Source: an uncultured Mycoplasmatota bacterium
Lineage (GTDB): Bacteria > Bacillota_I > Bacilli_A > RF39 > UBA660
DNA length: 56,977 bases
Assembly: GCA_946497925.1 (NCBI GenBank)
Contig: CAMMMG010000003.1
Span: 1 to 56,977 of the forward strand
Direction: 5' to 3'
Part shown: piece by piece, positions 70 to 27,898 of the stretch
Position numbering within the stretch: the stretch's first letter is position 1
Layout of the letters: each line of letters begins with the position of its first letter
The notes under the pieces: model-generated
Seen by the model: the letters and a program-made list of their open reading frames with translations, nothing else
Told to the model about the DNA's origin: nothing
The model's database searches: none
Program-made: the position numbers and the translations under genes

Positions 70-363
70 TTACATACCTATTAAATCAAAGTTAATAGGG
101 TCTTCTTTAAGTAATTCAATAATATTAGTATTAGAATGTTTTTCTATTCTCATCTTTATAGAATTAACATCATCATAAAACAGATTAGGTTTATTTATTA
201 TAATATCTTTTATATTAGTAAGTCCTATTGATAATAAGTAATCTATTATCGATGATACTCTTTCTTCATTTAACTCTAATTCTAGTTTATCATCTTCATC
301 TATAGAACTAGTAATATCTTTTATATCTTCAGTAGTTAGATTATATTTAGTTAAATACTCCAT
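70..363 (-). CDS. 97-aa helical-repeat protein (mTERF-like motif); last gene of the four-gene operon
   Basis: ORF track. The ATG at 363 is preceded by GAGGTGA and overlaps the end of the upstream gene by 13 nt. The motif IIDYLLSIGLTNIKDIIINKPNLF resembles an mTERF-type repeat. Confidence 0.55.
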   Translation of the reverse strand: MEYLTKYNLTTEDIKDITSSIDEDDKLELELNEERVSSIIDYLLSIGLTNIKDIIINKPNLFYDDVNSIKMRIEKHSNTNIIELLKEDPINFDLIGM

Positions 364-2192
364 CCATACTCACCTCTTCCTTTTACTGATGTTTTAATTA
401 AGTTAAATGTCTTTTCATCTAGGTACATACCTCTAGTAACTGAATATAAGATAGCATTATCATCAGTAATACCTTTTTCTTTTAAAGCACTATAGCATCT
501 TAAAACTTTTAACCTAGAGATAATTTCATTACCTATTTTATATTGATATGGATTGTTATCAACTCTATATTGTTCTTCCAAAGTCTTTATCTTCTCATCT
601 GTTAAAATATCATCTTGATAATTAAGAGGATTTTCCCTTGTTATTACTTCTTCATATTCACTAGCATTAGGAATATAAGTATCATTCATTTGATTTATAA
701 AATTTTCTTGTTTGAATGTTTCTATTTCTTCAATTGTCCCAAGATTATATCCAAATTTTTTAGAGCATTTAGTAGTTAAGCATCTATTTAGCAATTGCCT
801 ATATCTTTGATATTGTGAAAATATAATATTATAATAATCTTCTATACTATTTTCTCTTTTTAATTTATATAGTAGAGCAAAGTTTTCTTCTCTCATACAA
901 TTAATGACAGATGGATTGCCAACAGCATAATTAATATTAAAATTATGTAATAGACCTAGTTCTACTAATCTGTCACATTTATCTGCTACTTTGGAAAAAG
1001 AAAAAGCAGATGGTGGGAAAGAAGACATATCTCTGTTGAAGAAACCATACGTTTTATAAGTTCGAACATTCTCTTCTATTTTTTCTCTAGATGTTTGTAA
1101 TACTTTAATATTAGTCTTATTAGAAATAGAAACATTAAGACCTAAACTTGTCAAGTATTCTTCATTAGATAGCATCTCTTCATAAGAAATCATATTAGCA
1201 TAACCACGCAACCTATGGTTATTACCACTTCCACCTCTATTGCTTGATGGAGATTTATGTCTCGCTCTTGCTTTTTTAGGTAAATTGTTTACCCATATAC
1301 TAGGCATCTCAAAAAGTGCTGGAAATAGAGCTTTACGTTCTTTTAAATCTTCATAACGTTTACTAACGGTATTCTCATTACTATATAAAACAATTGCTAG
1401 TAAAGCTCCTTTTGAAAATTTGTCTAGTATTTTCTTGCTTCCTAAAAAGGTTAATATTTCTCTTGCATTACTTAAATCTATATTTCTAGATATCTCTTCT
1501 TTATTTCTATCAATATATTTTAGCATATCTTCGTTAAAGCCAAAGCTTCTAAAACATTCTTTGACTTCTTCTATATCAGTAGTTACTAATATTTTTTTAT
1601 TTTGTTTTTTGATAGTTTCGTTATATTCAATTACACTGCTTAATAAATCTAGTTTAATTTTAGAAGAAGTATCTTTATCTTCAAGTATTATAGATAAAGT
1701 TTTAAAGTCTTCTAAATTTAACAAGGAATAATCTTCTTTATCATTAACTTTTTCATATAAGTATTCTAAATTTAAAATAGCTTCTTCAATAGATGATACT
1801 TCTTCTTTATTTTTATTAGCTTTTTCTTCTTCTGTTCTTAGAGTTTCTGCTAATGAGTCTTTCTTTTCTACTAACTCTTCTATTAGTTTTTTGATAGTTT
1901 CTAGTTGCATAGAGGTTAAATCAACTGCTAAGTTAGCTTCATATTTAGCTTTTAAAACGAGCTTTATATTATTTAAATCTTCTTCTTTTATTGAAATATA
2001 ATTACTTATATCTTGATACTGTAAATCTTTTATATTTTTTATATCTTTATTTAGTATTTCAATTAAGTTTGTAAGTTTATTTATTTCTTCTTTTAAAGAT
2101 TCAATCTTTTCCTTGTTATTTTCAAGATTAAAATTATTGTAAGTCTCATACAAGTTATCACGTTTTGTTTTAATAATTTCTGCTAATGTCAT
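351..2192 (-). CDS. about 613-aa protein: N-terminal coiled coil, basic linker, then mTERF-like helical repeats
   Basis: ORF 351..2207. The ATG at 2192 has an AGGTGA Shine-Dalgarno; the ATG at 2207 has none. The first ~200 aa are E/K/L-rich heptads. Repeated turns: FRSFGFNEDML, LTFLGSKKIL, YLTSLGLNVS, YKTYGFFNRD, LVELGLLHNF. Confidence 0.6.
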   Translation of the reverse strand: MTLAEIIKTKRDNLYETYNNFNLENNKEKIESLKEEINKLTNLIEILNKDIKNIKDLQYQDISNYISIKEEDLNNIKLVLKAKYEANLAVDLTSMQLETIKKLIEELVEKKDSLAETLRTEEEKANKNKEEVSSIEEAILNLEYLYEKVNDKEDYSLLNLEDFKTLSIILEDKDTSSKIKLDLLSSVIEYNETIKKQNKKILVTTDIEEVKECFRSFGFNEDMLKYIDRNKEEISRNIDLSNAREILTFLGSKKILDKFSKGALLAIVLYSNENTVSKRYEDLKERKALFPALFEMPSIWVNNLPKKARARHKSPSSNRGGSGNNHRLRGYANMISYEEMLSNEEYLTSLGLNVSISNKTNIKVLQTSREKIEENVRTYKTYGFFNRDMSSFPPSAFSFSKVADKCDRLVELGLLHNFNINYAVGNPSVINCMREENFALLYKLKRENSIEDYYNIIFSQYQRYRQLLNRCLTTKCSKKFGYNLGTIEEIETFKQENFINQMNDTYIPNASEYEEVITRENPLNYQDDILTDEKIKTLEEQYRVDNNPYQYKIGNEIISRLKVLRCYSALKEKGITDDNAILYSVTRGMYLDEKTFNLIKTSVKGRGEYGWSI

Positions 2193-2200
2193 AATATCAC

Positions 2201-2401
2201 CTACCATTCCATTAATATTCGATACGTTTCTAAATAAAAGGAGAAGTCTTTAATTCTAGTTTGAAAATTAGAGATAAATTCTCTAGAACTGATTCCTAAA
2301 GCAAAAGATATCTCTTCTAAACTCACATCTTTTTCTCTAATTAGGTTCATGCAGTCATTTTTAATGTTTAGAAATAAACTATCTAGTTTTTCATCTATCA
2401 T
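2201..2401 (-). CDS. 66-aa XRE-like helix-turn-helix protein (antitoxin-like position)
   Basis: ORF. Its ATG shares one nucleotide with the upstream stop (TAATG). The HTH-like segment is VSLEEISFALGISSREFISNF. Confidence 0.55.
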   Translation of the reverse strand: MIDEKLDSLFLNIKNDCMNLIREKDVSLEEISFALGISSREFISNFQTRIKDFSFYLETYRILMEW

Positions 2402-3798
2402 TATTTATGTTCATCTCCTTTTATTGCCACTATAGTTTTAAATTGTTCAGTAAATTCTTCTTGTTGTTCTAAGAAAAGGGCATTCTTACTTTCTATATTT
2501 TTTAATGTGTTTTTAATAAGAGAAGTATAATTTTGAGCGATACTATTAGAGTCGTCAAAAATATTATTTAGGTGAGCGAATGTTAATATTAAGACTTTAT
2601 TATCTTTAGCTCTTATATAAGAAACACACATATTAGAACTTTTATTAATATAGATATCGAATTTATGTCTTCTTGATTGTAATTTAGTATGTTTTTTACC
2701 TTTTTCATGATCATGAATACCTTTTTCAAACTTTTCTACAAGAGATAAACTGCGTTTTTTCTCTTCCTTACTAAATTTATCCATATCAAAGAAAGGACTA
2801 TTACTTTCATCTAGTAGAAAATATATTTCATTAGTTGTTTTTTCTTCTTCTATTTTTTCTTCTGTTAGGATACTATCTAATGCTATAGCTTTATTATAGT
2901 CTTCTTTAAGAATATTAAAATAATCGTTTATGTCTTCTAACGTAGTGTTAGTATTATTTAGTTGTAATTCTAACTCTTGTTTTGTTTCAAGCATATCTAA
3001 TAACAATACTGTCATAGAAATATCTTTATATTGAAATTCATCTATGCCAAGGGCAGATAGGTTTAGGTTATCTTTGCTTTCCTGTGCTTTAATAGCTTTT
3101 GCCATTTCTCTATTGTAATTTATATACTTTTCATCTTTACCTTTTATTAAATAATAGTATTTACTTATAATACTCTCTATACTATCTTTAATTTTTAGAT
3201 ATTCTTCTTTTAGTTTCTTAAGTTCTTCTTCATTTACATTTACAGTTGCTTCTTCAGAAAATAGTGTCTCTATTTCTTTGGATTCTTTATCTTGAGTTTG
3301 AAGCTTAGCTTCTTCTTTTGTTGTGGCATTTTTACAACTTTCATATGCAAGTTCTTTTAGAATACTTATTTTTTCTTCATCAGTAATATTTGCTTTTAAG
3401 ATAAAAGAAGCTTTAGCACTAAGACTTTTTTCATCTAACTCTTTTATTTCTGACTCTAATTTTTTTGCTTGAAGTTGATACTTTTCTTTGTTACTAAAAC
3501 AGTCTTTTACTCTCTCATCTGTTAATATATTATTTAGAGCGATTGTAACTTGTTCTATTTCTAAGGCATTGTTTTCCCAAAAGAATTTAATAATTTGCAA
3601 ATTAGAAATTAACTGGGGAAATAAAAGAAGTAGTGTTTTTTGATTTTCTAATAAATTTGATATATATTTTTGTATATCATCTTTAGGCATACTTAAAATT
3701 TCGGCACTTTTTATCATGGCTCTGTAATTATCAAGTTCTCTTTTTAGCTCTTGTGATTGTTCTTCTATTAATTGTTCATATTTTTCTTTTGGTTCCAT
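2401..3798 (-). CDS. 465-aa protein: long coiled coil plus a C-terminal RelE/HigB (Gp49)-like domain
   Basis: ORF with an AAAGGAGGA Shine-Dalgarno. The C-terminus IYFLLDESNSPFF...KFDIYINKSSNMCVSYIRAKDNKVLILTFAH aligns by eye with Gp49/HigB-type toxins. The first ~330 aa are coiled-coil-like. Confidence 0.6.
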   Translation of the reverse strand: MEPKEKYEQLIEEQSQELKRELDNYRAMIKSAEILSMPKDDIQKYISNLLENQKTLLLLFPQLISNLQIIKFFWENNALEIEQVTIALNNILTDERVKDCFSNKEKYQLQAKKLESEIKELDEKSLSAKASFILKANITDEEKISILKELAYESCKNATTKEEAKLQTQDKESKEIETLFSEEATVNVNEEELKKLKEEYLKIKDSIESIISKYYYLIKGKDEKYINYNREMAKAIKAQESKDNLNLSALGIDEFQYKDISMTVLLLDMLETKQELELQLNNTNTTLEDINDYFNILKEDYNKAIALDSILTEEKIEEEKTTNEIYFLLDESNSPFFDMDKFSKEEKKRSLSLVEKFEKGIHDHEKGKKHTKLQSRRHKFDIYINKSSNMCVSYIRAKDNKVLILTFAHLNNIFDDSNSIAQNYTSLIKNTLKNIESKNALFLEQQEEFTEQFKTIVAIKGDEHK

Positions 3799-3823
3799 AT
3801 ATTTATCCTCCTTTATTTTAACA

Positions 3824-3856
3824 TTAAAAAGAACAGAATATATTTATCCTGTTCTT
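3824..3856 (-). terminator. intrinsic terminator/attenuator between the leader ORF and the 465-aa gene
   Basis: On the minus strand: AAGAACAG, a 12-nt loop, CTGTTCTT, then TTTTT. The perfect 8-bp stem lies about 25 nt upstream of the 465-aa start codon. Confidence 0.6.
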
Positions 3857-3948
3857 AACTCACCATGAAAGAAAGTAATTTTATTATTACTTATGTTTTT
3901 ATTAATACTGCCCCCCAGGTAATAAATTGTAAACGTATATTTTGTCAT
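3844..3948 (-). CDS. 34-aa leader ORF (MTKYTFTIYYLGGSINKNISNNKITFFHGELRTG)
   Basis: ATG with a GAAGGT Shine-Dalgarno 6 nt upstream. The last codons AGA ACA GGA form the 5' arm of the terminator, and the TAA stop sits in its loop. Too short to appear in the ORF track. Confidence 0.4.
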   Translation of the reverse strand: MTKYTFTIYYLGGSINKNISNNKITFFHGELRTG

Positions 3949-3978
3949 TTTATTACCTTCTTTCTTTTTACTATCTTA

Positions 3979-4007
3979 ATAGTATCACAATATACTTAAA
4001 TTTACAA
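3979..4007 (-). promoter_or_regulatory. sigma-A-type promoter for the leader and four-gene operon
   Basis: Minus strand: TTGTAA (-35), a 17-nt spacer, then TGaTACTAT (extended -10). Confidence 0.5.
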
Positions 4008-4066: not shown

Positions 4067-4264
4067 TTAAGATATCTTTAAACCATTTTCTACTTTACTA
4101 TCTAGATTTAGTAAAACAACTCCTAGTACTAAAACTTCACTTGTTACTTCTGATATATGAATAGGCTTAAAGTTAACTACTGCTATTATTTGTTTTCCTA
4201 TTAAATCTTCTAACGTTATCATATTAAAAGCATAGGTTTTACCTATGCCATAATTATCTTCCAT
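4067..4264 (-). pseudogene. truncated CsaA/EMAP-type tRNA-binding domain (C-terminal two thirds only)
   Basis: LIGKQIIAVVNFKPIHISEVTSEVLVLGV...VENGLKIS matches the C-terminal part of a CsaA-like OB fold. The N-terminal ~35-40 aa are missing. The ORF overlaps the M23 gene end by 11 nt. Confidence 0.4.
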
Positions 4265-7974: not shown

Positions 7975-8823
7975 CTAGGCACCACCTTTTACTTCATAGG
8001 AATCCATGGCAACAAAGAATGCATTTTTATCTATGTTATGGATACCTTCTTTTAATTTATAGTATTCTCTTGTTGGAATTACACTCATTAGAACTGTTTG
8101 GTTTTCACTATTGTAACCACCTTTAGCATTAAATTCTGTTACGCCATGTTTTAATTCATTTATAACAAAGTCTTTAACTTCTTTTTCTTTGCTAGTAATT
8201 ATATAAAATGCTTTAGAATCAGATATTCCTAGGACTACTTTATCTGTTAGTGTAGAAATTAAGTAAAGAATTATAAGTGAGTACATTAAGTGATTAAAAC
8301 CAAAGACAAAGGCTCCTATTACTATGATTGTACCATCAGTAAAGAACATACTATTACCAAGACTAATTTTAAATATTTTAGATACTATCATATTTAGTAT
8401 ATCTGTTCCACCTGTAGAATAACCTGCTCTAAATATAAGACCAGCGCCAAGTCCTTGTAAAACTCCTCCAAAGATAGCGATTAGTATCATTTCACTTTCT
8501 TTAAAACTTATATAAGTAGATAAATGTTCTGTTAGACTTACAAATATTGGAAAAAGAATAGAGCCAAGTATTGTCGCTTTAGTTTTTTCTTTGCCTAAAA
8601 CTAAGAATGATACTATTATTAATAAAATATTAGCGACAGAGATAATAGTTGAAGGATTAAGGCCAAAGAAGTGTTTTAATATTAAAGAAAAACCACTCAC
8701 TCCTCCTGCTACTAAATTGTTAGGAGACATGAAAAGATTAAAGGCTAGGGCTACTAAGAAGCAACCTATGATAAATTCTATTAATTCTTTAATTCTAATT
8801 TTTTGCTTTATCACTTTCTTCAT
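7975..8823 (-). CDS. YitT-family membrane protein (DUF2179), tandem paralog
   Basis: Same architecture as 7127..7972 (TEFNAKGGY...AFFVAMDSYEVKGG). The start overlaps the prfB 3' end. Confidence 0.7.
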   Translation of the reverse strand: MKKVIKQKIRIKELIEFIIGCFLVALAFNLFMSPNNLVAGGVSGFSLILKHFFGLNPSTIISVANILLIIVSFLVLGKEKTKATILGSILFPIFVSLTEHLSTYISFKESEMILIAIFGGVLQGLGAGLIFRAGYSTGGTDILNMIVSKIFKISLGNSMFFTDGTIIVIGAFVFGFNHLMYSLIILYLISTLTDKVVLGISDSKAFYIITSKEKEVKDFVINELKHGVTEFNAKGGYNSENQTVLMSVIPTREYYKLKEGIHNIDKNAFFVAMDSYEVKGGA

Positions 8824-12698: not shown

Positions 12699-13968
12699 AA
12701 TTCTTAAAGTAATCAACTATTTCAGATACATTAACTGTTTCAGTAGAATTATCTTTTGTATTTTCTATACAATAATTTTCTCCATCAAATTTATTTCCTA
12801 ATATAATCATTTTAGGAGTACCAAGTACATATACATCATTAATTCTATTACCAATTGTTAAATTTTCTCTATCGTCAATAATAGCATTAATGTTATTATC
12901 TGTTAATTCCTTATATAAAAACTCAGCTTTATCTTTATTATTCTCATTATAGATAATTTGTACTTTATAAGGAGCGATTTCATAAGGTAGAGCGAAGCCT
13001 TTAATTTTATCATCATTTCTAATAACGTTGTTTTCTATTAGACAAGCGATTATTCTACCTAATCCTATACCATAGCATCCCATATAATATGGCTTATTAT
13101 TACCATTTTCATCTATATAGAACAATTTCATGCTTTCTGAATATTTTGTTCCTAATTGGAAATTATTACCTAACTCTACTGCTTGATATTCTTTTAATTT
13201 ACTAGTATCATTAATATTTAACTGTTTTAAATAATCATCTTTATTATCAAATTCTAATACTTCTTTATTAATACCTAGATCTTGTTCTTCATCATATAGA
13301 ACTGTATCTTCTCCAAGTTTAGTTGCAGCTTGGAACTCTTCGGCAACACTTCCACCTATTACACCATTATCACTTACTGTAGGCATTATTTTTATACCTA
13401 GTCTTTTAAAGATATTTAAGTAAGCTTCATGCATTAAATCATATGTTTTTCTCATATCTTCTTCTGTTTTATCAAAAGAATATGCATCCATCATGACAAA
13501 TGTTCTTGGTCTAAAAAGATATCCTCTAGTTCTTATTTCTTTTCTAAACTTCTCTCCTATTTGATAATATATTGCAGGTAAATTCTTATATGAAGGGAGC
13601 CTATTGGCACCAAATAGGGTTGCACATTCTTCTGCTGTAGGGGCAAGTCCATATTCTCCTAGATTATTATCTAGAGTAAACATAATATCTCCTTCTTTAG
13701 TATACATATCCCATCTATTAGATTGTTCCCATATTTTCTTTGGTTGTAGTTTAGGAAACTCTACTTGAATACATCCTACTTTATCTAATTCTTCAATAAT
13801 GATATTTTCAACTATTCGTTCTAATTTAGTCCAAAGATTTCCATATCCATAAATACCACTTTCATATTGATAAAGTTCTCCTAATTTCATTAAGATATCT
13901 TGTCCTGAATAGTTCTTATCAATATCATTTAAGTTAATCTTTTTAATATTTAATCTACTAAGTCTCAT
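12694..13968 (-). CDS. proS: bacterial-type prolyl-tRNA synthetase lacking the INS editing domain
   Basis: AAGAGGAA Shine-Dalgarno before ATG 13968. Class II motifs: LAPTAEE, FRKEIRTRGYLFRPRTFVMMDAYSF, GCYGIGLGRIIACLIE. An anticodon-binding domain is present. At about 424 aa there is no room for a ~180-aa INS. Confidence 0.7.
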   Translation of the reverse strand: MRLSRLNIKKINLNDIDKNYSGQDILMKLGELYQYESGIYGYGNLWTKLERIVENIIIEELDKVGCIQVEFPKLQPKKIWEQSNRWDMYTKEGDIMFTLDNNLGEYGLAPTAEECATLFGANRLPSYKNLPAIYYQIGEKFRKEIRTRGYLFRPRTFVMMDAYSFDKTEEDMRKTYDLMHEAYLNIFKRLGIKIMPTVSDNGVIGGSVAEEFQAATKLGEDTVLYDEEQDLGINKEVLEFDNKDDYLKQLNINDTSKLKEYQAVELGNNFQLGTKYSESMKLFYIDENGNNKPYYMGCYGIGLGRIIACLIENNVIRNDDKIKGFALPYEIAPYKVQIIYNENNKDKAEFLYKELTDNNINAIIDDRENLTIGNRINDVYVLGTPKMIILGNKFDGENYCIENTKDNSTETVNVSEIVDYFKNL

Positions 13969-14089
13969 AATAATTCCTCTTTTCTTTAATGATATTATAT
14001 GTGTATTTTTCTTGTACGTCAAATTAAACTTTAAAAGATGCTAGCATAAACTAACATCTTTATCTTTTTCCACAGATATTGTGGATATT

Positions 14090-15151
14090 TTAATTATTAG
14101 ATTCTTTTATGTATTTTAATTCTCCCATACGTGATGTTGGGATGAAACCAGATTCACTTGCAATTACATCAGGAATTCTATTAACAATGGCTGCACAAGT
14201 TAATCTTACTGTATCTGGTTTTTCAATTACTAGAGTTGTATCAGGTTCACCATAAATTGTCCATTCATTTCTATCAAACTCATCTTTATTGTAAACTTTA
14301 CCAATACATTCTGTTTCTAGAGTAATACCTTCTTTTGTTTTTGTTGTAACAACAGCACTCATACCTGTAGCCATACCAGATTTAACTGTCATTCCTAAAG
14401 TAGATGATTCAATATCATAATCATTGAACTGAGGAACACATTTTTGACGTTGACTCACTACTGTTAAACCTAATTTATCGCAAAGCCAACCATTTACATT
14501 CCACATATATGATGGAGAGTAAGCACCACTTTCTATTACTTTTCTTCTTTCTTCATCACTTATTTCATCAGCTTTAGCTACTTGTGCATCAAACTCTTCT
14601 TTTGTAAGTCCTGCTCCATGAGCTTTAGCAAGAGCGATACCATAGTCTTCTACATTGTAAGATGAACTACCTTTTATCTTAGTAATATTATGACTTGATC
14701 CAATTAAAGTAGTAATTAGATTACCCCAGAAAGCATCTTGATAACCACTACCTGTAATTGTACAATTATTTTCTTTAGCAAGTTTATCAATTTTGGCTGT
14801 TAAAGTAGGATTAGAGTTCATTGGGAAGAATGCTTCTTCACATGTAGTAATAGCATTAACTCCACATTTTGCACATACCATTAGGGCATCTTCTACATCA
14901 GAAAGTAAACTCATAGTTGTAACGATAACACAATCAGGTTTTAATTCAGTTAGAAGTTCTTCTGCCTTATTAGCATTATCAACAACTACTCCTACTTTAT
15001 CTCCTCCCATAATTTCTCCGATATCTTTTCCTATAACATCTGGATTAATATCAACAGCACCAACTATAGTACCACCGTTTTCTATGACAAATTTCATAGT
15101 ATAGACACTCATTTTTCCACAACCATATTGGAATATTCTTAATCCTTTCAT
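14090..15151 (-). CDS. NAD(P)-dependent amine dehydrogenase, DapB-like / 2,4-diaminopentanoate dehydrogenase family
   Basis: Rossmann N-terminus LRIFQYGCGKMS...GAVDINPDVIGKDIGE and overall resemblance to the Ord/DapB-like family. Start chosen at ATG 15151. Confidence 0.5.
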   Translation of the reverse strand: MKGLRIFQYGCGKMSVYTMKFVIENGGTIVGAVDINPDVIGKDIGEIMGGDKVGVVVDNANKAEELLTELKPDCVIVTTMSLLSDVEDALMVCAKCGVNAITTCEEAFFPMNSNPTLTAKIDKLAKENNCTITGSGYQDAFWGNLITTLIGSSHNITKIKGSSSYNVEDYGIALAKAHGAGLTKEEFDAQVAKADEISDEERRKVIESGAYSPSYMWNVNGWLCDKLGLTVVSQRQKCVPQFNDYDIESSTLGMTVKSGMATGMSAVVTTKTKEGITLETECIGKVYNKDEFDRNEWTIYGEPDTTLVIEKPDTVRLTCAAIVNRIPDVIASESGFIPTSRMGELKYIKESNN

Positions 15152-15290
15152 TTTTACCATCCTTTCTAAATTCATTATAACATTTTAATTTGATAGAATG
15201 TGTGATTAACAAAAAAAGTTATACTTTTTATCATAACTTTACATTTCTTTTTTATTACCAATTTTATTACTTATAGCTTTTTTATTATCT

Positions 15291-15316
15291 AACATGTCGG
15301 AGTTTCCGACATGTTG
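15291..15316. repeat. perfect 11-bp inverted repeat (hairpin)
   Basis: AACATGTCGGA gttt TCCGACATGTT. It sits just beyond the DinD-like remnant. Confidence 0.7.
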
Positions 15317-15348
15317 AGTTCTTATCAACTTTTTTAACAATAGACTTT

Positions 15349-15504
15349 TTATATGATTTTTTTCTCTATTGGCATTGGCACCGTTTTGCCGACGTTGGCA
15401 AAACGGTCACTTACATTAATGTTACTAACATTACATGATATTTTAGTTTTATTAATAATCTTTTTAAAATTTCTCCATCTAGAATATCCTAAAGCTGTTA
15501 TTAG
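15349..15504 (-). pseudogene. DinD-like (DNA-damage-inducible protein D) N-terminal fragment
   Basis: The minus-strand frame reads LITALGYSRWRNFKKIINKTKISCNVSNINVSDRFANVGKTVPMP, compared with E. coli DinD LLGYSEYRHF..AKEACENSGHTIDDHF. It is bounded by stops and has no start codon. Confidence 0.5.
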
Positions 15505-15599
15505 TTATCTTACTCTCCAATATTTAGTTAATATCTTATCAATATTTCTAATATCATTGAAATGATTATCTATACTTATTTAAACTAATTTTTAAAGTT

Positions 15600-15900
15600 T
15601 GACTAAGTATTTCTTTTATAACAATATTATTTAGATTTTTCTTACATATGCTATCAAATAAAATGGTATTTTGTGAACAATGTTAACATTCCTATTTTCT
15701 TCTTTTTGAACTGTCAAGAATTTCTTGACAGTTGAAATTCTCACTTACCTCCCCTTCATTAAAAATATTTTTTATATGCGAACTAATATTATGTTTACTT
15801 GTATCATATAAATCAACCATTTGTTGTTTGTTTTATCTTCTAATTTTACATCTATCTTTGTCTTACCGTCCTCTAATTGATATATTATAATGTTATTTTT
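15600..15900 (-). pseudogene. RhuM-family gene remnant with multiple frameshifts
   Basis: Three minus-strand frames read NNIIIYQLEDGKTKIDVKLED / QQMVDLYDTSKHNISSHIKNIFNEGEVSEN / TVKKFLTVQKEENRNV, which is the conserved RhuM N-terminal order. No start codon, and in-frame stops are present. Confidence 0.6.
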
Positions 15901-16040
15901 CTTAAGGGAATGAATACTATATTTATATATTTTCTATAATATTAAATCACGAATATTTTGTAAAATAGTGTACTCGTTCTAATAGTTATGTGTATGTATT
16001 AACATACAGCTTTACAAATGTATAGTATTATTTTTACAGA

Positions 16041-16075
16041 AAAAACACTTATGACTTAATGAGGTCACAAGTGTT
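16041..16075 (-). terminator. intrinsic terminator after the RibD_C-like gene
   Basis: Minus strand: AACACTTGTGAC, an 8-nt loop, GTCATAAGTGTT, then TTTTTC. Confidence 0.65.
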
Positions 16076-16091
16076 CTTAATATGTTTTTTA

Positions 16092-16784
16092 TTATCTAAT
16101 TATTTTATATTTTAATTGAATATAAGAGTCTTCTAATTTATTACATTCAATTAATTGTAAAGCTTTCAACTTATTTAATTCGTTTACTGTGCTAATAGCA
16201 TCTCCATCTATTAATGTAGAAGTATCTCTACCTCCTACTAATAATGGAGCAATTACAATATTAACATAGTCAATTAAATCTTCTCGTAAGAATTTTCCAT
16301 TTAAATTTCCACCAGATTGGATTGTTATTTTTTCAGCATTATATTTTTGTTTCATATCAGTTAATAAAGTTTTTAAATCTAAAACTTCATAATAGAGAAT
16401 ATCCAAGTTTTCATACTTTTCTTTTAAGGAAAAAGCTATATGATTTTTATTTGTAGTTACTAATATTAACTTTTCTACCCAATTACATAGATAATCAATT
16501 CCATGTTCATTTAAATGAGGTTTATTGTCAATAATTATAAAACTGATATCTACTTTCTCATGATATTCTTTTCTATCATTAATGCCGATTTTAGCCATTA
16601 CTCTACCAGTATTTAAAGAGTAATAATCTGTTGTAGCTTCTATTTCATAATATTGATGTAATCCTTCTTTTACACCTTCAATTTGACACCAATCTTTATC
16701 AGCATCTAAATTATCACTATTTCCACTATTTATTTTTCCATCTAATGATTCTAGCATAAATAGCGTAGTTATAGGTCTTTCCAT
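16092..16784 (-). CDS. dihydrofolate reductase-like / RibD C-terminal domain family protein
   Basis: N-terminus RPITTLFMLESLDGKINSG and C-terminal SGGNLNGKFL...VIAPLLVGG are typical of the RibD_C family. Confidence 0.6.
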   Translation of the reverse strand: MERPITTLFMLESLDGKINSGNSDNLDADKDWCQIEGVKEGLHQYYEIEATTDYYSLNTGRVMAKIGINDRKEYHEKVDISFIIIDNKPHLNEHGIDYLCNWVEKLILVTTNKNHIAFSLKEKYENLDILYYEVLDLKTLLTDMKQKYNAEKITIQSGGNLNGKFLREDLIDYVNIVIAPLLVGGRDTSTLIDGDAISTVNELNKLKALQLIECNKLEDSYIQLKYKIIR

Positions 16785-16831
16785 TTTTTCTCCTTTAATG
16801 CAATTTTACAAAATACTTATATAATAAAGTT

Positions 16832-19330
16832 TTATTTATTTTTTCCACAGCATTGTTTATATTTCTTACCACTTCCACATGGACATGGGTCATTTCTACC
16901 TACTTTTTTTACTTTCTTAGGTGTTCTCTTTGTATCTTTAACATCATTAGTCTGTTGATTCTTTGCAACTTGCTTTCTTTCGATGTTTTGTCTTATTTCT
17001 GCTTTAAGTAAGAATACAGTTATATCTCTATCTATTTTTTGAAGCATATCATCAAATAGTCCATAACCTTCTGTAGTGTATGCTCTTAGTGGGTCATCTT
17101 GTCCATATTGACGAAGATAGATACCTTCTCTTAAGTGAGACATAACATTTATTTGTTCCATCCAGTAGTTATCTATAACTTGTAGTGATAAAGCTTTTTC
17201 AAATTCATTACTAATTTCTACTGGCACTTCTTTAATCTTAGCTTCATATTCTTCTTTAGCTTTTTCATAAATATATTCTATTATATCATCAGCATCTCTA
17301 TTTTCTAATTCTACTTTACTTATATCGTTCTTTAGTAAGTTTTCATTAGCAAAATCTGTAATACTTTGTAATTCTTCTTCAGTAATTGTACTATCAGCAT
17401 TTCTTGATTTAACTAAATCTGTAACATGATTATGAATAGAGTTTAATACTGTTTCATGAATAGATTCACTATCTAGGATTTCATTACGTTTACCATACAT
17501 GATTTCTCTTTGAGTATTCATAACATCATCATATTGTAGTAAATGTTTTCTAGCATCAAAGTTATTTCCTTCTACACGTTTTTGAGCAGTTCCTATTGCT
17601 TTTGTAAAGGTTTTACTTTGAATAGCTTGATCTCCAAAACCAAAGCTTTTCATCATCTCTCGAATATGTTCACTACCAAATCTAATCATCAAGTCATCTT
17701 CCATAGAGACAAAGAACTGAGTATAACCTGGATCTCCCTGACGACCAGAACGTCCTCTTAACTGATTATCAATACGACGTGATTCATGACGTTCAGTACC
17801 TATTACACAAAGTCCTCCAAGTTCTCTTATTTCATCTGATAGTTTGATATCAGTACCACGTCCTGCCATGTTAGTAGCGATTGTAACAGAACGATGTTCT
17901 CCGATTTTAGAAATTATTTCTGCTTCACGAGCATGGTTTTTAGCATTTAATATTTCATGAGGAATATGAGCTTTCTTTAATAAGTCACTAATTAATTCAC
18001 TGGTTTCAATGGCTATAGTACCAATTAAAACTGGTTGTCCTTTATCATAACGATTCTTTACCTCATTAATAATAGCTTTATATTTAGCACTACGTGTTGC
18101 AAATACTAAGTCTGGTGCATCTACTCTTATAACTGGTTTATTAGTAGGTATTTCAATAACATACATATTATAGATATCTCTAAATTCTTCTTCTTCTGTT
18201 TTAGCAGTACCAGTCATACCTGATAGTTTTTTATACATTCTAAATAAGTTTTGGAAGGTAATAGTTGCAAGTGTTTTAGTTTCTTGGTTGATTTTAACTC
18301 CTTCTTTAGCTTCTATCGCTTGATGAAGTCCATCACTATAAGCTCTTCCTTTCATTAAACGTCCAGTAAATTGATCTACTATTACTACTTCATCATCTTG
18401 AACAACGTAGTCTACATCTTTTTTCATAGCATAATTAGCACGTAGGGCTTGGTTAATATAATGTAGTAAAGTAGCATTTTCTATTTCATATAGATTTTTA
18501 ATCTTAAACATTTTCTCTGCTTTTTCACTACCTTCATCAGTAAGTGATACACTGATTGTACTTTTACCTGTCTCATCACAGATATAATCAGTCTCTTCTT
18601 TAAGAGATTTAGCAAATTTATCGGCATCTATATATAGATTTGCACTATGCTGTGCACCTCCTGATATTATTAATGGAGTTCTCGCTTCATCAATTAGAAT
18701 AGAGTCAACTTCATCGACGATAGCAAAGTTTAGAGGACGTTGTACCCTATTTTCTTTTCTAATTACCATATTATCTCTTAAGTAATCAAATCCTATCTCA
18801 TTATTAGTAGAGTATAAGATATCACAGTTATAAGCTTCTTGTTTTTCTTTAGGAGACATATCTCTTGTATTAACACCTACTGTTAAACCAAGAAATCTAT
18901 GTATTCCTCCCATCCATTCAGCATCACGAGTTGCAAGATATTCATTAACTGTAATAATATGAACACCTTTTCCTTCTAAGGCATTAAGATAGGCAGGCAT
19001 TACACAAGTTAGGGTTTTACCTTCACCAGTTTTCATCTCGGCTATATTTCCATAGTGAATTGCTAGGGCACCTAGTATTTGAACATAGAAAGGCTTTTCT
19101 CCTATAACACGATATGCTGCTTCTCTTGCTACAGCGAAACCTTCTACTAAGATATCTTCTAGTGTTTCTCCATTTGCTAATCTTTCTTTAAACTCTTCTG
19201 TTTTATGTTTTAATTCATCATCACTTAACTTAGTCATCTCTTCATCAAGAGCGACTATTTTGTCAGCTTGTGCTGTAAACTTTTTTAATTCTTTATATTC
19301 ATGATCAAATAGTTTTCTAAATAATCCCAT
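16832..19330 (-). CDS. secA: preprotein translocase ATPase SecA
   Basis: DEAD motor motifs (MKTGEGKTL, DEVDSILIDEARTPLIISG) and the C-terminal zinc finger CPCGSGKKYKQCCG. ATG 19330 lies 9 nt after AAGGAG. Confidence 0.95.
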   Translation of the reverse strand: MGLFRKLFDHEYKELKKFTAQADKIVALDEEMTKLSDDELKHKTEEFKERLANGETLEDILVEGFAVAREAAYRVIGEKPFYVQILGALAIHYGNIAEMKTGEGKTLTCVMPAYLNALEGKGVHIITVNEYLATRDAEWMGGIHRFLGLTVGVNTRDMSPKEKQEAYNCDILYSTNNEIGFDYLRDNMVIRKENRVQRPLNFAIVDEVDSILIDEARTPLIISGGAQHSANLYIDADKFAKSLKEETDYICDETGKSTISVSLTDEGSEKAEKMFKIKNLYEIENATLLHYINQALRANYAMKKDVDYVVQDDEVVIVDQFTGRLMKGRAYSDGLHQAIEAKEGVKINQETKTLATITFQNLFRMYKKLSGMTGTAKTEEEEFRDIYNMYVIEIPTNKPVIRVDAPDLVFATRSAKYKAIINEVKNRYDKGQPVLIGTIAIETSELISDLLKKAHIPHEILNAKNHAREAEIISKIGEHRSVTIATNMAGRGTDIKLSDEIRELGGLCVIGTERHESRRIDNQLRGRSGRQGDPGYTQFFVSMEDDLMIRFGSEHIREMMKSFGFGDQAIQSKTFTKAIGTAQKRVEGNNFDARKHLLQYDDVMNTQREIMYGKRNEILDSESIHETVLNSIHNHVTDLVKSRNADSTITEEELQSITDFANENLLKNDISKVELENRDADDIIEYIYEKAKEEYEAKIKEVPVEISNEFEKALSLQVIDNYWMEQINVMSHLREGIYLRQYGQDDPLRAYTTEGYGLFDDMLQKIDRDITVFLLKAEIRQNIERKQVAKNQQTNDVKDTKRTPKKVKKVGRNDPCPCGSGKKYKQCCGKNK

Positions 19331-19402
19331 TATAAACATCTCCTTGCATATAGTATTTTATCAAAAAATAAAGATAATAAAAAGCTTTTAAGGTTATTTT
19401 GT

Positions 19403-19434
19403 CAAAAAAAGAATGATATTTTTAATATCATTCC
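19403..19434 (-). terminator. intrinsic terminator after hpf
   Basis: Minus strand: GAATGATATT, a 3-nt loop, AATATCATTC, then TTTTTTTG. The stem is a perfect 10 bp. Confidence 0.8.
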
Positions 19435-19458
19435 TTGTTTACTTGGCTTTATTCAGTT

Positions 19459-19986
19459 TTACTCGGCTTCTATTATACCATAGCCACCATTTTTTCTTTT
19501 ATAAACCACTGCTTCTTTGTCAGTGTCAACATTTTTAAATAAATAAAATTCATGACCTAGTAATTCTAATTGAAGTATTGCCTCTTCTTCATCCATTGGC
19601 TTTACTTCTATTTTCTTATGTTTGATAATATTATTTTCTTCATGTTCCTCTTCTTCAATATCTACAATACTAAAGTCAATTCTAGTCTTTGCTTCTTTAG
19701 CTTTAATCTTAGTCTTATTCTTTCTTATTTGACGTTCTATAACATCTATAGCTTTATCTACTGATGCATAGAAATCATCCTGTGTCTCTTCAGACCTAAT
19801 AATAAAATTGTGAAGTGGAATTGTAATTTCGACAGTTTGCATATGTCCTTTAACTTTTACTACTACGTTAGCACGTACATTATCACTATTTTCTAGATAT
19901 TTCTCTAGTCTTTTCAATTTCTCATTAATGTAGTCTTTCATAGCAGCAGTTACTTCAATTTTGTCACCACGAATAATAATTTCCAT
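19459..19986 (-). CDS. hpf: long-form ribosome hibernation promoting factor
   Basis: MEIIIRGDKIEVTAAMKDYI... S30AE domain plus the C-terminal dimerisation domain (FYLFKNVDTDKEAVVYKRKNGGYGIIE). AAGGAAGGTGA Shine-Dalgarno. Confidence 0.9.
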   Translation of the reverse strand: MEIIIRGDKIEVTAAMKDYINEKLKRLEKYLENSDNVRANVVVKVKGHMQTVEITIPLHNFIIRSEETQDDFYASVDKAIDVIERQIRKNKTKIKAKEAKTRIDFSIVDIEEEEHEENNIIKHKKIEVKPMDEEEAILQLELLGHEFYLFKNVDTDKEAVVYKRKNGGYGIIEAE

Positions 19987-27824: not shown

Positions 27825-27898
27825 TTTTCTTCTCTCCTTTCGCCATGATAATTTATTTATCATAGAAATCATCCCTTTAAGGAACTAATTCGCTACTT

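Follow-up and report, generated by a model that had tools for sequence, protein, structure and literature searches.

Four coupled genes that fit no named family raise the question of whether they form a toxin-antitoxin pair with passengers, a defence module, a nucleic-acid-binding system or part of the ordinary machinery of the cell. They lie on contig CAMMMG010000003.1 of an uncultured Mycoplasmatota bacterium (assembly GCA_946497925.1), of which positions 1 to 56,977 were analysed (hereafter, the window), and are here called g1, g2, g3 and g4 in the order in which they follow each other on the minus strand. A first reading of the bare letters (hereafter, the original prediction) had drawn attention to them. 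We find that this operon does not behave as a mobile toxin-antitoxin (TA) or defence module; it is a vertically inherited, selected gene set that lies among housekeeping genes in many uncultured gut Firmicutes. Tentatively, we read it as a module of TA origin, now a fixed part of the chromosome, in which two helical scaffolds would each have a small partner and a RelE-fold domain would face RNA or the ribosome.

The four open reading frames (ORFs) and their junctions match the original description. The products measure 465, 66, 613 and 97 amino acids (aa); g1 and g2 are joined by a TAATG overlap, the g3 start codon at 2192 (likelier than the mechanical ORF start at 2207) follows the g2 stop codon after a gap of 8 nt, with an AGGTGA straddling that stop codon, and g3 and g4 overlap by 13 nt. 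Such coupled junctions support the claim that the genes are a single expression unit (Table 1). The GC content of the window is 25-31%, and the stretch resembles chromosomal DNA of a Bacillota organism with a small genome. By composition all four proteins are acidic overall, none has a membrane segment, and basic parts are limited to g1 residues 321-412 (isoelectric point, pI, 9.4) and to the g3 linker at residues 304-334 (pI 12). No family name fits any of the four, as had been supposed when they were set apart from housekeeping families: none of them has a credible match in Pfam, NCBIfam, PADLOC or PHROGs, Pfam scans of all the relatives in the alignments find nothing relevant, and PDB searches, whether with the single sequences or with profiles of g1, g2, g3, g4 and the g3 C-terminal domain, return only chance matches or designed repeat proteins.

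Related records come from metagenome-assembled genomes (MAGs) of uncultured Bacilli or 'Tenericutes', the nearest named organism being Candidatus Onthousia. Close homologues number 31 for g1, all of them lacking a family name and any relevant Pfam domain, and 46 for g3. The g3 profile, used in an exhaustive HMMER search, retrieves 346 clusters (50% identity) at E <= 1e-3 and 178 at E <= 1e-10; metagenomes and MAGs are their sole sources, and nearly every sequence listed at full length has 560-700 aa. Loci (numbered with the prefix L) were collected through g3, so the sample consists of genomes that carry the cassette. The order g1-g2-g3-g4 is kept in 14 GTDB species-representative loci, down to 27-35% identity, and in further metagenome contigs; the original prediction had proposed co-occurrence as a check, and the families are co-linear at every related locus examined. 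One cassette (L010) lies in a circular genome of 1.2 Mb. Searches of phage and plasmid collections with g1 and g3 (tblastn) gave no match, and a scan of IMG/VR found no copy of the cassette. Ratios of nonsynonymous to synonymous substitution rates (dN/dS; Table 1) show purifying selection on the operon, and its dS is similar to that of the neighbouring ftsEX and pcsB genes. From the synteny, the lack of mobile copies and the dN/dS and dS pattern, it follows that the operon is a vertically inherited gene set and not an island.

Evidence that links this gene set to TA systems lies at the C-terminus of g1, the best-conserved part of the protein, and the ~320 residues that precede the RelE-like domain are conserved along with it. 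These residues hold few Pro or Gly (3 Pro, 2 Gly in residues 1-320), and heptad-like segments are restricted to residues ~94-137, 183-220 and 261-314; the ~330-aa coiled coil proposed earlier stands as a helical region of ~320 aa but not as a continuous coiled coil, its heptads being patchy. An AlphaFold2 (AF2) model of residues 300-465 has a mean predicted local distance difference test score (pLDDT) of 79, and within the RelE-like domain most 10-residue blocks reach 80-94, with a dip to 55 in one loop. The modelled topology is b-a-a-b-b-b-b (second helix short), followed by three helices. When this model is compared with PDB by Foldseek, the ten best matches are all RelE-family toxins (probability 0.80-0.99, target-normalised template modelling (TM) score 0.49-0.66, E 0.0095-0.14). 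They include a Streptococcus pneumoniae TA toxin (6af4/6af3), which we take to be HigB, RelE2 and RelE1 of Mycobacterium tuberculosis, and the RelE proteins of Thermus thermophilus and Methanocaldococcus jannaschii; Cami1 (rank 15, E 0.79), BrnT, colicin D, ParE2 and HigB2 appear at lower ranks. With RelE toxins as the top matches, the by-eye call of a RelE/HigB-type fold is supported at the level of fold, and at that level the modelled C-terminus of g1 probably has such a fold. In L027 the protein is split over two genes, one for the N-terminal part (332 aa) and one for the RelE-like part (164 aa); this is the only stand-alone case, and the domain is therefore a separable module.

The g1 of one further locus is of a different build: in L011 (792-4185) it lacks its first ~125 residues (331-aa ORF) and lies directly after ORFs of 430 and 269 aa, which could reflect an insertion or rearrangement that disrupted g1.

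The small partner of g1 is less easily placed. Homologues of g2 were found in L001-L020, L025 and L028; they are acidic proteins of 64-76 aa that, where present, always overlap the g1 stop codon. The pattern LEEISFALGISSREFISNF fits the classical positions of a helix-turn-helix (HTH) by eye, but none of 8 g2 proteins matches HTH_3, HTH_19 or HTH_31 (XRE) at E <= 10, so the XRE-type HTH of the original prediction persists as a pattern and not as a profile match. Sub-threshold Pfam matches are to winged-helix types (DDRGK, PF0610-like_N, HTH_10, PCI), and the best real PDB match is 1wi9 (E 0.32). Kinship of g2 with the repeats of g3 and g4 was considered and rejected (hhalign probability < 2% against g3 and g4, <= 14% against the mTERF unit profile). 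Among PDB entries, the designed left-handed toroids dTor_12x31L and dTor_9x31L are recurrent matches of the g2 motif ELSFxLGISxxxF, a hint that g2 may carry one unit of helix-G-helix type; a related design, dTor_6x35L, is matched by the mTERF consensus described below.

The second pair, g3 and g4, is united by homology as well as by position. g4 adjoins g3 in every cassette examined, and its profile aligns with g3 residues ~213-285 (hhalign probability 91%, E 1e-6, score 36.6; best of 30 column shuffles 13.7), which identifies g4, on profile comparison, as a paralogue of the g3 central domain. The AF2 model of g3 (mean pLDDT 84.7) has long, coiled-coil-like helices over residues 1-204, among them one of 57 residues (94-150), in agreement with the 200-aa coiled coil proposed for this region; beyond the linker, helical units extend over residues 335-457. 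Motifs of the form h-x-x-h-G-h occur five times in g3, at residues 214, 247, 347, 379 and 409 (shuffle mean 0.79, P=0.002), and at residues 43 and 92 of g4. The claim that g4 shares the g3 repeat is thus borne out by these motifs and by the profile alignment, and the five repeats claimed for g3 are present as motifs, but two stand before the linker and three after it, not all five after it. Self-comparison of g3 segments shows no strong internal repeat, and Foldseek searches of whole g3 against PDB and BFVD yield nothing significant. Across 61 representatives of the wide family the most conserved part of g3 is residues 461-613 (Y551, S559, R560, K562, V563), a domain whose profile has no match in PDB or Pfam. 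The two large proteins also have a 27-residue motif in common (g1 125-151 and g3 162-188; hhalign probability 69%, E 4e-5).

On the reading that we tentatively favour, the products would assemble in the cytoplasm around two large, acidic and helical proteins, each with a small acidic partner to which it is coupled in translation. g1 would be a helical scaffold ending in the RelE/HigB-fold domain, with the mini HTH-like g2 as its partner; g3, with its coiled-coil N-terminus, degenerate and weakly mTERF-like three-helix units, linker and conserved C-terminal domain, would have g4 as its partner, and the g3-g4 pair would serve as a scaffold for regulation or targeting. Of the globular surfaces in the system only that of the RelE-fold domain is basic (pI 9.4, the rest of the globular parts being acidic), and this domain would dock on RNA or on the translating ribosome and bind or cleave there, and g2, where present, may modulate it. 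The charge of that domain is consistent with this proposal, as are the acidity of g2, its overlap with g1 and its HTH-like pattern, the motif shared by g1 and g3, the homology of g3 and g4, the conserved gene order and the presence of Cami1 among the Foldseek matches. The coupled junctions with their ribosome-binding sites, the RelE-type topology, the purifying selection at a dS like that of ftsEX/pcsB, the retention of the cassette in a 1.2-Mb genome, and the promoters and conserved leader with terminator also fit it.

Several observations weigh against this proposal. The Foldseek E-values of the g1 domain are weak (1e-2 to 0.1), the RelE, HigB, Gp49, ParE, YoeB and YafQ profiles of Pfam and NCBIfam match neither g1 nor 14 relatives at E <= 10, and a search of PDB sequences with the g1 profile finds no RelE, HigB or Gp49 match. 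The nearer clades conserve H370, K372, N385, S393, Y394 and R396; what persists across 15 diverse cassettes is limited to the first strand ('FLLD' type), S393/Y394 and the hydrophobic core, H370, K372 and N385 being specific to the nearer clades. RelE toxins themselves vary at catalytic positions. The repeat domains are acidic by composition (g3 pI ~5.5, g4 pI 4.3), only the disordered linker being basic, so g3 and g4 need not bind nucleic acid, contrary to the earlier description of them as nucleic-acid-binding solenoids. Finally, g2 is absent from five of the ten most distant cassettes (L021, L022, L024, L026 and L027, among L019-L028), as judged by a six-frame search of ±8 kb around the cassette, and in these five g1 abuts g3. 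That g2 can be lost and the 'toxin' retained is at odds with classical TA logic; together with the poor conservation of the putative catalytic residues, it tells against the original idea of a toxin and antitoxin pair ordered as in higBA.

Dispensability of g2 and the lack of conserved catalytic-type residues would also suit a non-enzymatic scaffold complex with a housekeeping role in division, envelope growth or nucleoid organisation, the RelE-like fold being then a degenerate binding module. We regard this alternative as rather unlikely. The proteins are long, helical and acidic, as a scaffold might be, their vertical inheritance and purifying selection fit, and genes for division or the envelope are frequent neighbours (ftsEX-pcsB, murE/F-mraY, ftsA-ftsZ-spoIIGA-sigE | sigG, gpr-spoIIP, ylmH, ltaS, cps). 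In the nine closest loci with enough flank the operon lies downstream of ftsE-ftsX-pcsB, and uvrB follows it in L002 and L008, the loci whose downstream genes were read. No neighbour is constant across lineages, however: elsewhere the cassette follows murE/murF/mraY, ylmH, ltaS or cps genes, occupies the PFOR/recG interval, lies near the genes for RNase III and RNase J, or precedes rpsF-ssb-rpsR or lysS. Since a promoter of its own and a terminator upstream set the operon apart in every case, adjacency need not imply co-function, and scans found no membrane or known division domain.

Some of these sites are of note in themselves. On a contig from a spore-former (L020, 4792-11144) the cassette lies between sigE, which follows ftsA-ftsZ-spoIIGA, and sigG, and in L022 it comes after gpr-spoIIP; a link to sporulation, considered in view of these sites, was dropped, as neither the remaining contexts nor the promoters, which are of sigma-A type, agree with it. 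In L016 a type VII secretion locus (13486-19702) lies 1.3 kb downstream of the cassette and comprises an FHA-FtsK/SpoIIIE EssC-like gene, two WXG100 genes, a DUF6382 gene and a kinase gene; between the two are an ORF of 163 aa and a divergently oriented HTH gene. One MAG (BRZ_BV__bin67) holds two differing cassettes (L003 and L004, 82% and 79% identity to the g3 of the window), which points to either two co-binned strains or a duplication.

An anti-phage or abortive-infection system, in which g1 would be a RelE-type effector released on infection, g2 its inhibitor and g3 and g4 the sensors, is in our view quite improbable. Cami1, in which a larger protein carries a RelE-fold effector, is a precedent for it, the families lack names, and g1 was called the fastest-evolving gene (dN/dS up to 0.34). 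Against these points, PADLOC (PADLOC-DB 2.0) matches none of the four proteins and none of 61 g3 relatives; no integrase, phage or defence gene was seen beside the cassette in the contexts examined, which consist of housekeeping genes throughout; it is absent from the collections of phages and plasmids and from IMG/VR; and the locus is constant, with neighbour-like dS, across the clade. Neither the earlier suggestion of a defence module nor a defence-island setting is supported by these results.

Equally improbable, we think, is that g3 and g4 are true bacterial mTERF-family solenoids that bind nucleic acid and control transcription or RNA. The Pfam mTERF model (PF02536) matches none of ~90 family members (17 + 61 of g3, 9 of g4), even at E <= 1-10, and no mTERF structure is among the best 50 of 66 Foldseek matches (E <= 10) of the whole g3 model, whose best neighbours, TALE and BurrH proteins, are non-significant (E 0.28-1, TM ~0.2). 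The units are degenerate, number just five, are split by a linker and lie in acidic domains. There is nevertheless a signal. The AF2 model has three-helix units of ~33 aa, and a hidden Markov model (HMM) of one mTERF unit detects 5 of 14 g4 proteins at 9.6-19 bits (best shuffled sequence 1.9), though not the g3 of the window. A mini-profile was built from an idealised repeat consensus and MTERF1 segments recovered from PDB. Half of it is the idealised consensus and it is validated solely by PDB matches to MTERF1, MTERF3 and MTERF4, which that consensus retrieves at E 1e-19 to ~3e-5. Against this mini-profile hhalign gives g4 a probability of 81-85% (score 36, best shuffle 19.6) and g3 335-460 one of 37-65% (score 27-30, best shuffle 12.2), and other parts of g1 and g3 score <= 14. 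Against human MTERF1 alone the probabilities are not significant and the scores only just exceed the shuffles (g4 17.5 against 12.9, g3 335-460 20.3 against 14.4), but both alignments keep register. We therefore retain the mTERF-like repeats of the original prediction as a motif-level signal above shuffles, which appears real but weak, and not as membership in the family, which neither the Pfam model nor Foldseek recovers.

A classical higBA pair of g1 and g2 beside two unrelated passengers, to which the toxin-first order and the small, acidic, overlapping HTH-like gene would point, is highly improbable, since five lineages keep g1, g3 and g4 linked but lack g2, the RelE-like domain is continuous with 320 co-conserved residues, g1 and g3 share a motif, and no TA-family profile matches.

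In the TA-derived module that we favour, transcription would start from a sigma-A-type promoter of its own and, in the clade of the window, would be gated additionally by a leader with an intrinsic terminator. Promoter, leader and terminator lie upstream of g1 (Table 1) and were missed in the original prediction. Some 200 nt upstream of g1 are conserved across L001-L009, also where the gene upstream differs, and the promoter is conserved there irrespective of that gene. The leader occurs in this clade only; distant cassettes have, in its place, their own TGnTATAAT promoter and a short untranslated region. Its minimum free energy of -30 kcal/mol (z = -3.5) is reached by 0 of 200 shuffles, and the RNAalifold consensus has a long-range pairing of 3954-3964 with 3867-3877. 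No Rfam family is found at 3799-3972 in a gathering-threshold scan, and a permissive scan gives only chance, terminator-driven matches (E >= 0.4). The terminator hairpin stands ~25 nt 5' of the g1 ribosome-binding site, and all its stem pairs are kept in the 8 aligned leaders, bar one gapped cell in the outermost pair. A pattern scan of metagenomes for further leaders found one true additional copy (L029).

Within the leader, there is an upstream ORF with a Shine-Dalgarno (SD) sequence and ATG; in the window and in L001/L002, L006, L007 and L029 its end falls within the terminator loop. It also contains a G-run (3911-3916) whose length varies from 6 to 9 nt among genomes by differences that are not multiples of three, and the frame is broken by that length in four of ten sequences (L004, L005, L008, L009). 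Substitutions in it show no bias to synonymous changes; by inspection, 0 of ~12 codon differences between the window and L006 are synonymous. The idea of a conserved peptide gene was dropped on these grounds, and the frame breaks and unbiased substitutions lead us to regard the leader as a putative attenuator, acting at the RNA level or coupled to translation.

Two distant relatives have a different feature at this place. In L010 (~8290-8380) and L016 (~8290-8360), two copies of an AT-rich palindrome, GTTAATATTAAAA, lie just upstream of and overlapping the cassette promoter, and may be an operator site.

More ambitiously, the operon might be a hitherto unrecognised core machine of many uncultured Firmicutes, in which a domesticated RelE-type fold on a helical scaffold and bacterial mTERF-like repeat proteins jointly serve a housekeeping function at ribosomes or RNA, and with, in the Onthousia-like clade, a new type of leader whose upstream ORF ends in a terminator and whose poly-G tract is a possible phase switch; taken as a whole, we consider this picture improbable.

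Table 1. Positions in the window of the operon, its upstream elements and the predicted parts of its proteins, with dN/dS ranges for the genes and for three neighbours
Feature	Coordinates	Strand	dN/dS	Basis or remark
Operon promoter	3979-4006	-		Read from sequence: TTGTAA (4006-4001), 16-nt spacer, extended -10 TGaTACTAT (3987-3979)
Structured 5' leader, ~175 nt	3799-3972	-		Alignment of 8 loci, 81% mean column identity
SD-ATG upstream ORF, 34 codons	3844-3948	-		Stop codon within terminator loop
Intrinsic-terminator-like hairpin, 12 pairs and T-run	3824-3856	-		Terminator scan
g1, 465 aa, acidic; helical ~320-aa N-terminus, basic RelE/HigB-fold domain (predicted), three-helix tail	2401-3798	-	0.22-0.34	ORF
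RelE/HigB-like fold domain of g1 (predicted), residues ~324-409, pI 9.4	2572-2829	-		AF2 and Foldseek
g2, 66 aa, acidic, HTH-like (…SLEEISFALGISSREFISNF…)	2201-2401	-	0-0.15	TAATG overlap with g1; translationally coupled
g3, whole, 613 aa	351-2192	-	0.18-0.26	ORF
g3 residues 1-204, long-helix, coiled-coil-like	1581-2192	-		AF2
g3 residues 205-303, two three-helix units (FRSFGF, LTFLGS), g4-paralogous	1284-1580	-		AF2, hhalign
g3 residues 304-334, basic linker, pI 12	1191-1283	-		Disordered, pLDDT < 50 at 307-326; composition
g3 residues 335-460, three units (LTSLGL, YKTYGF, LVELGL), weakly mTERF-like	813-1190	-		Motif count, hhalign
g3 residues 461-613, alpha/beta domain with 'ISRxKVLR' motif	354-812	-		AF2; alignment of 61 representatives
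g4, 97 aa, pI 4.3	70-363	-	0.10-0.42	Stand-alone copy of g3 central domain
ftsE, ftsX, pcsB (neighbours)			0.03-0.15	

Elsewhere in the window, a truncated csaA-like ORF with a tRNA-binding domain (4067-4264, minus strand; 65 aa) overlaps the end of the M23/PcsB gene; a full copy of 108 aa is present in L006 and L008. The sole Rfam match of the window is an L31-Firmicutes ribosomal-protein leader at 27834-27865 (minus strand; 36 bits, above the gathering score).

Should the RelE-fold domain prove functional, a toxin fold would here have been recruited into a stable, vertically inherited multi-protein module, not a selfish or defence element, and the repeats of g3 and g4, if they are truly mTERF-like, would make up a second, much larger group of bacterial mTERF-like repeat proteins. 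The four co-inherited protein families defined here are retained even in reduced genomes of 1.2 Mb and have no family annotation, which recommends them for work on structure and interactions. As for the leader, confined as it is to one clade, it is a candidate for a new cis-regulatory RNA.

How, then, does the locus compare with known systems? The leader resembles the attenuator and riboswitch-type leaders of Firmicutes in being structured, with a terminator directly before the ribosome-binding site of the first gene, and in having an SD-ATG upstream ORF that ends inside the terminator. It differs from them in having no Rfam family and in being confined to one clade, and the upstream ORF differs in its broken frame (4 of 10) and in substitutions without synonymous bias. 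Among the repeat proteins, TALE and BurrH (4cja, 3v6t) share with g3 a helical repeat array of ~33-35 aa, whereas g3 lacks regularity of the repeat-variable diresidue (RVD) type and its matches to them are the non-significant ones given above.

With human MTERF1, MTERF3 and MTERF4, g3 and g4 have in common the ~33-aa three-helix units and the pattern h-x-x-L-x-x-h-G-h-s…P-x-h-h, and the profiles of g4 and g3 335-460 align with mTERF in register, above shuffles; unlike mTERF proteins, they are missed by the Pfam model and by Foldseek, and their domains are acidic. A published family of prokaryotic mTERF-like proteins, pTERF, stems from uncultured Bacillota and has 3-11 regular tandem repeats, with a period of 35 aa for pTERF1 given in the supplement (PMC11417379). 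Compared by description only, pTERF is like g3 in coming from uncultured Bacillota and unlike it in that g3 has degenerate units, with a linker between two groups of them. In general, the five degenerate units of g3 and the two of g4 are not the tandem, near-identical repeats of mTERF and pTERF proteins, and g3 has additional coiled-coil and C-terminal domains.

The RelE/ParE toxins (HigB, RelE; 6af4, 3g5o, 9g12, 2khe, 3bpq) share with the g1 domain a beta-alpha-alpha-beta sheet topology and a basic character, and, as in higBA, the g1 domain precedes a small, acidic, overlapping HTH-like gene. Unlike these toxins, the g1 domain stands behind ~320 conserved helical residues and before a three-helix tail, has no sequence-profile match and does not conserve the canonical basic catalytic positions; its partner gene is dispensable in several lineages, and the cassette is fixed in the chromosome, not mobile, and always linked to two more genes. 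Cami1 (8phj), a ribosome-dependent CARF-RelE ribonuclease, offers another comparison: although g1 has no recognisable CARF or other sensor domain and no CRISPR context, and the match is weak, in both proteins the RelE-fold domain is the C-terminal module of a larger protein.

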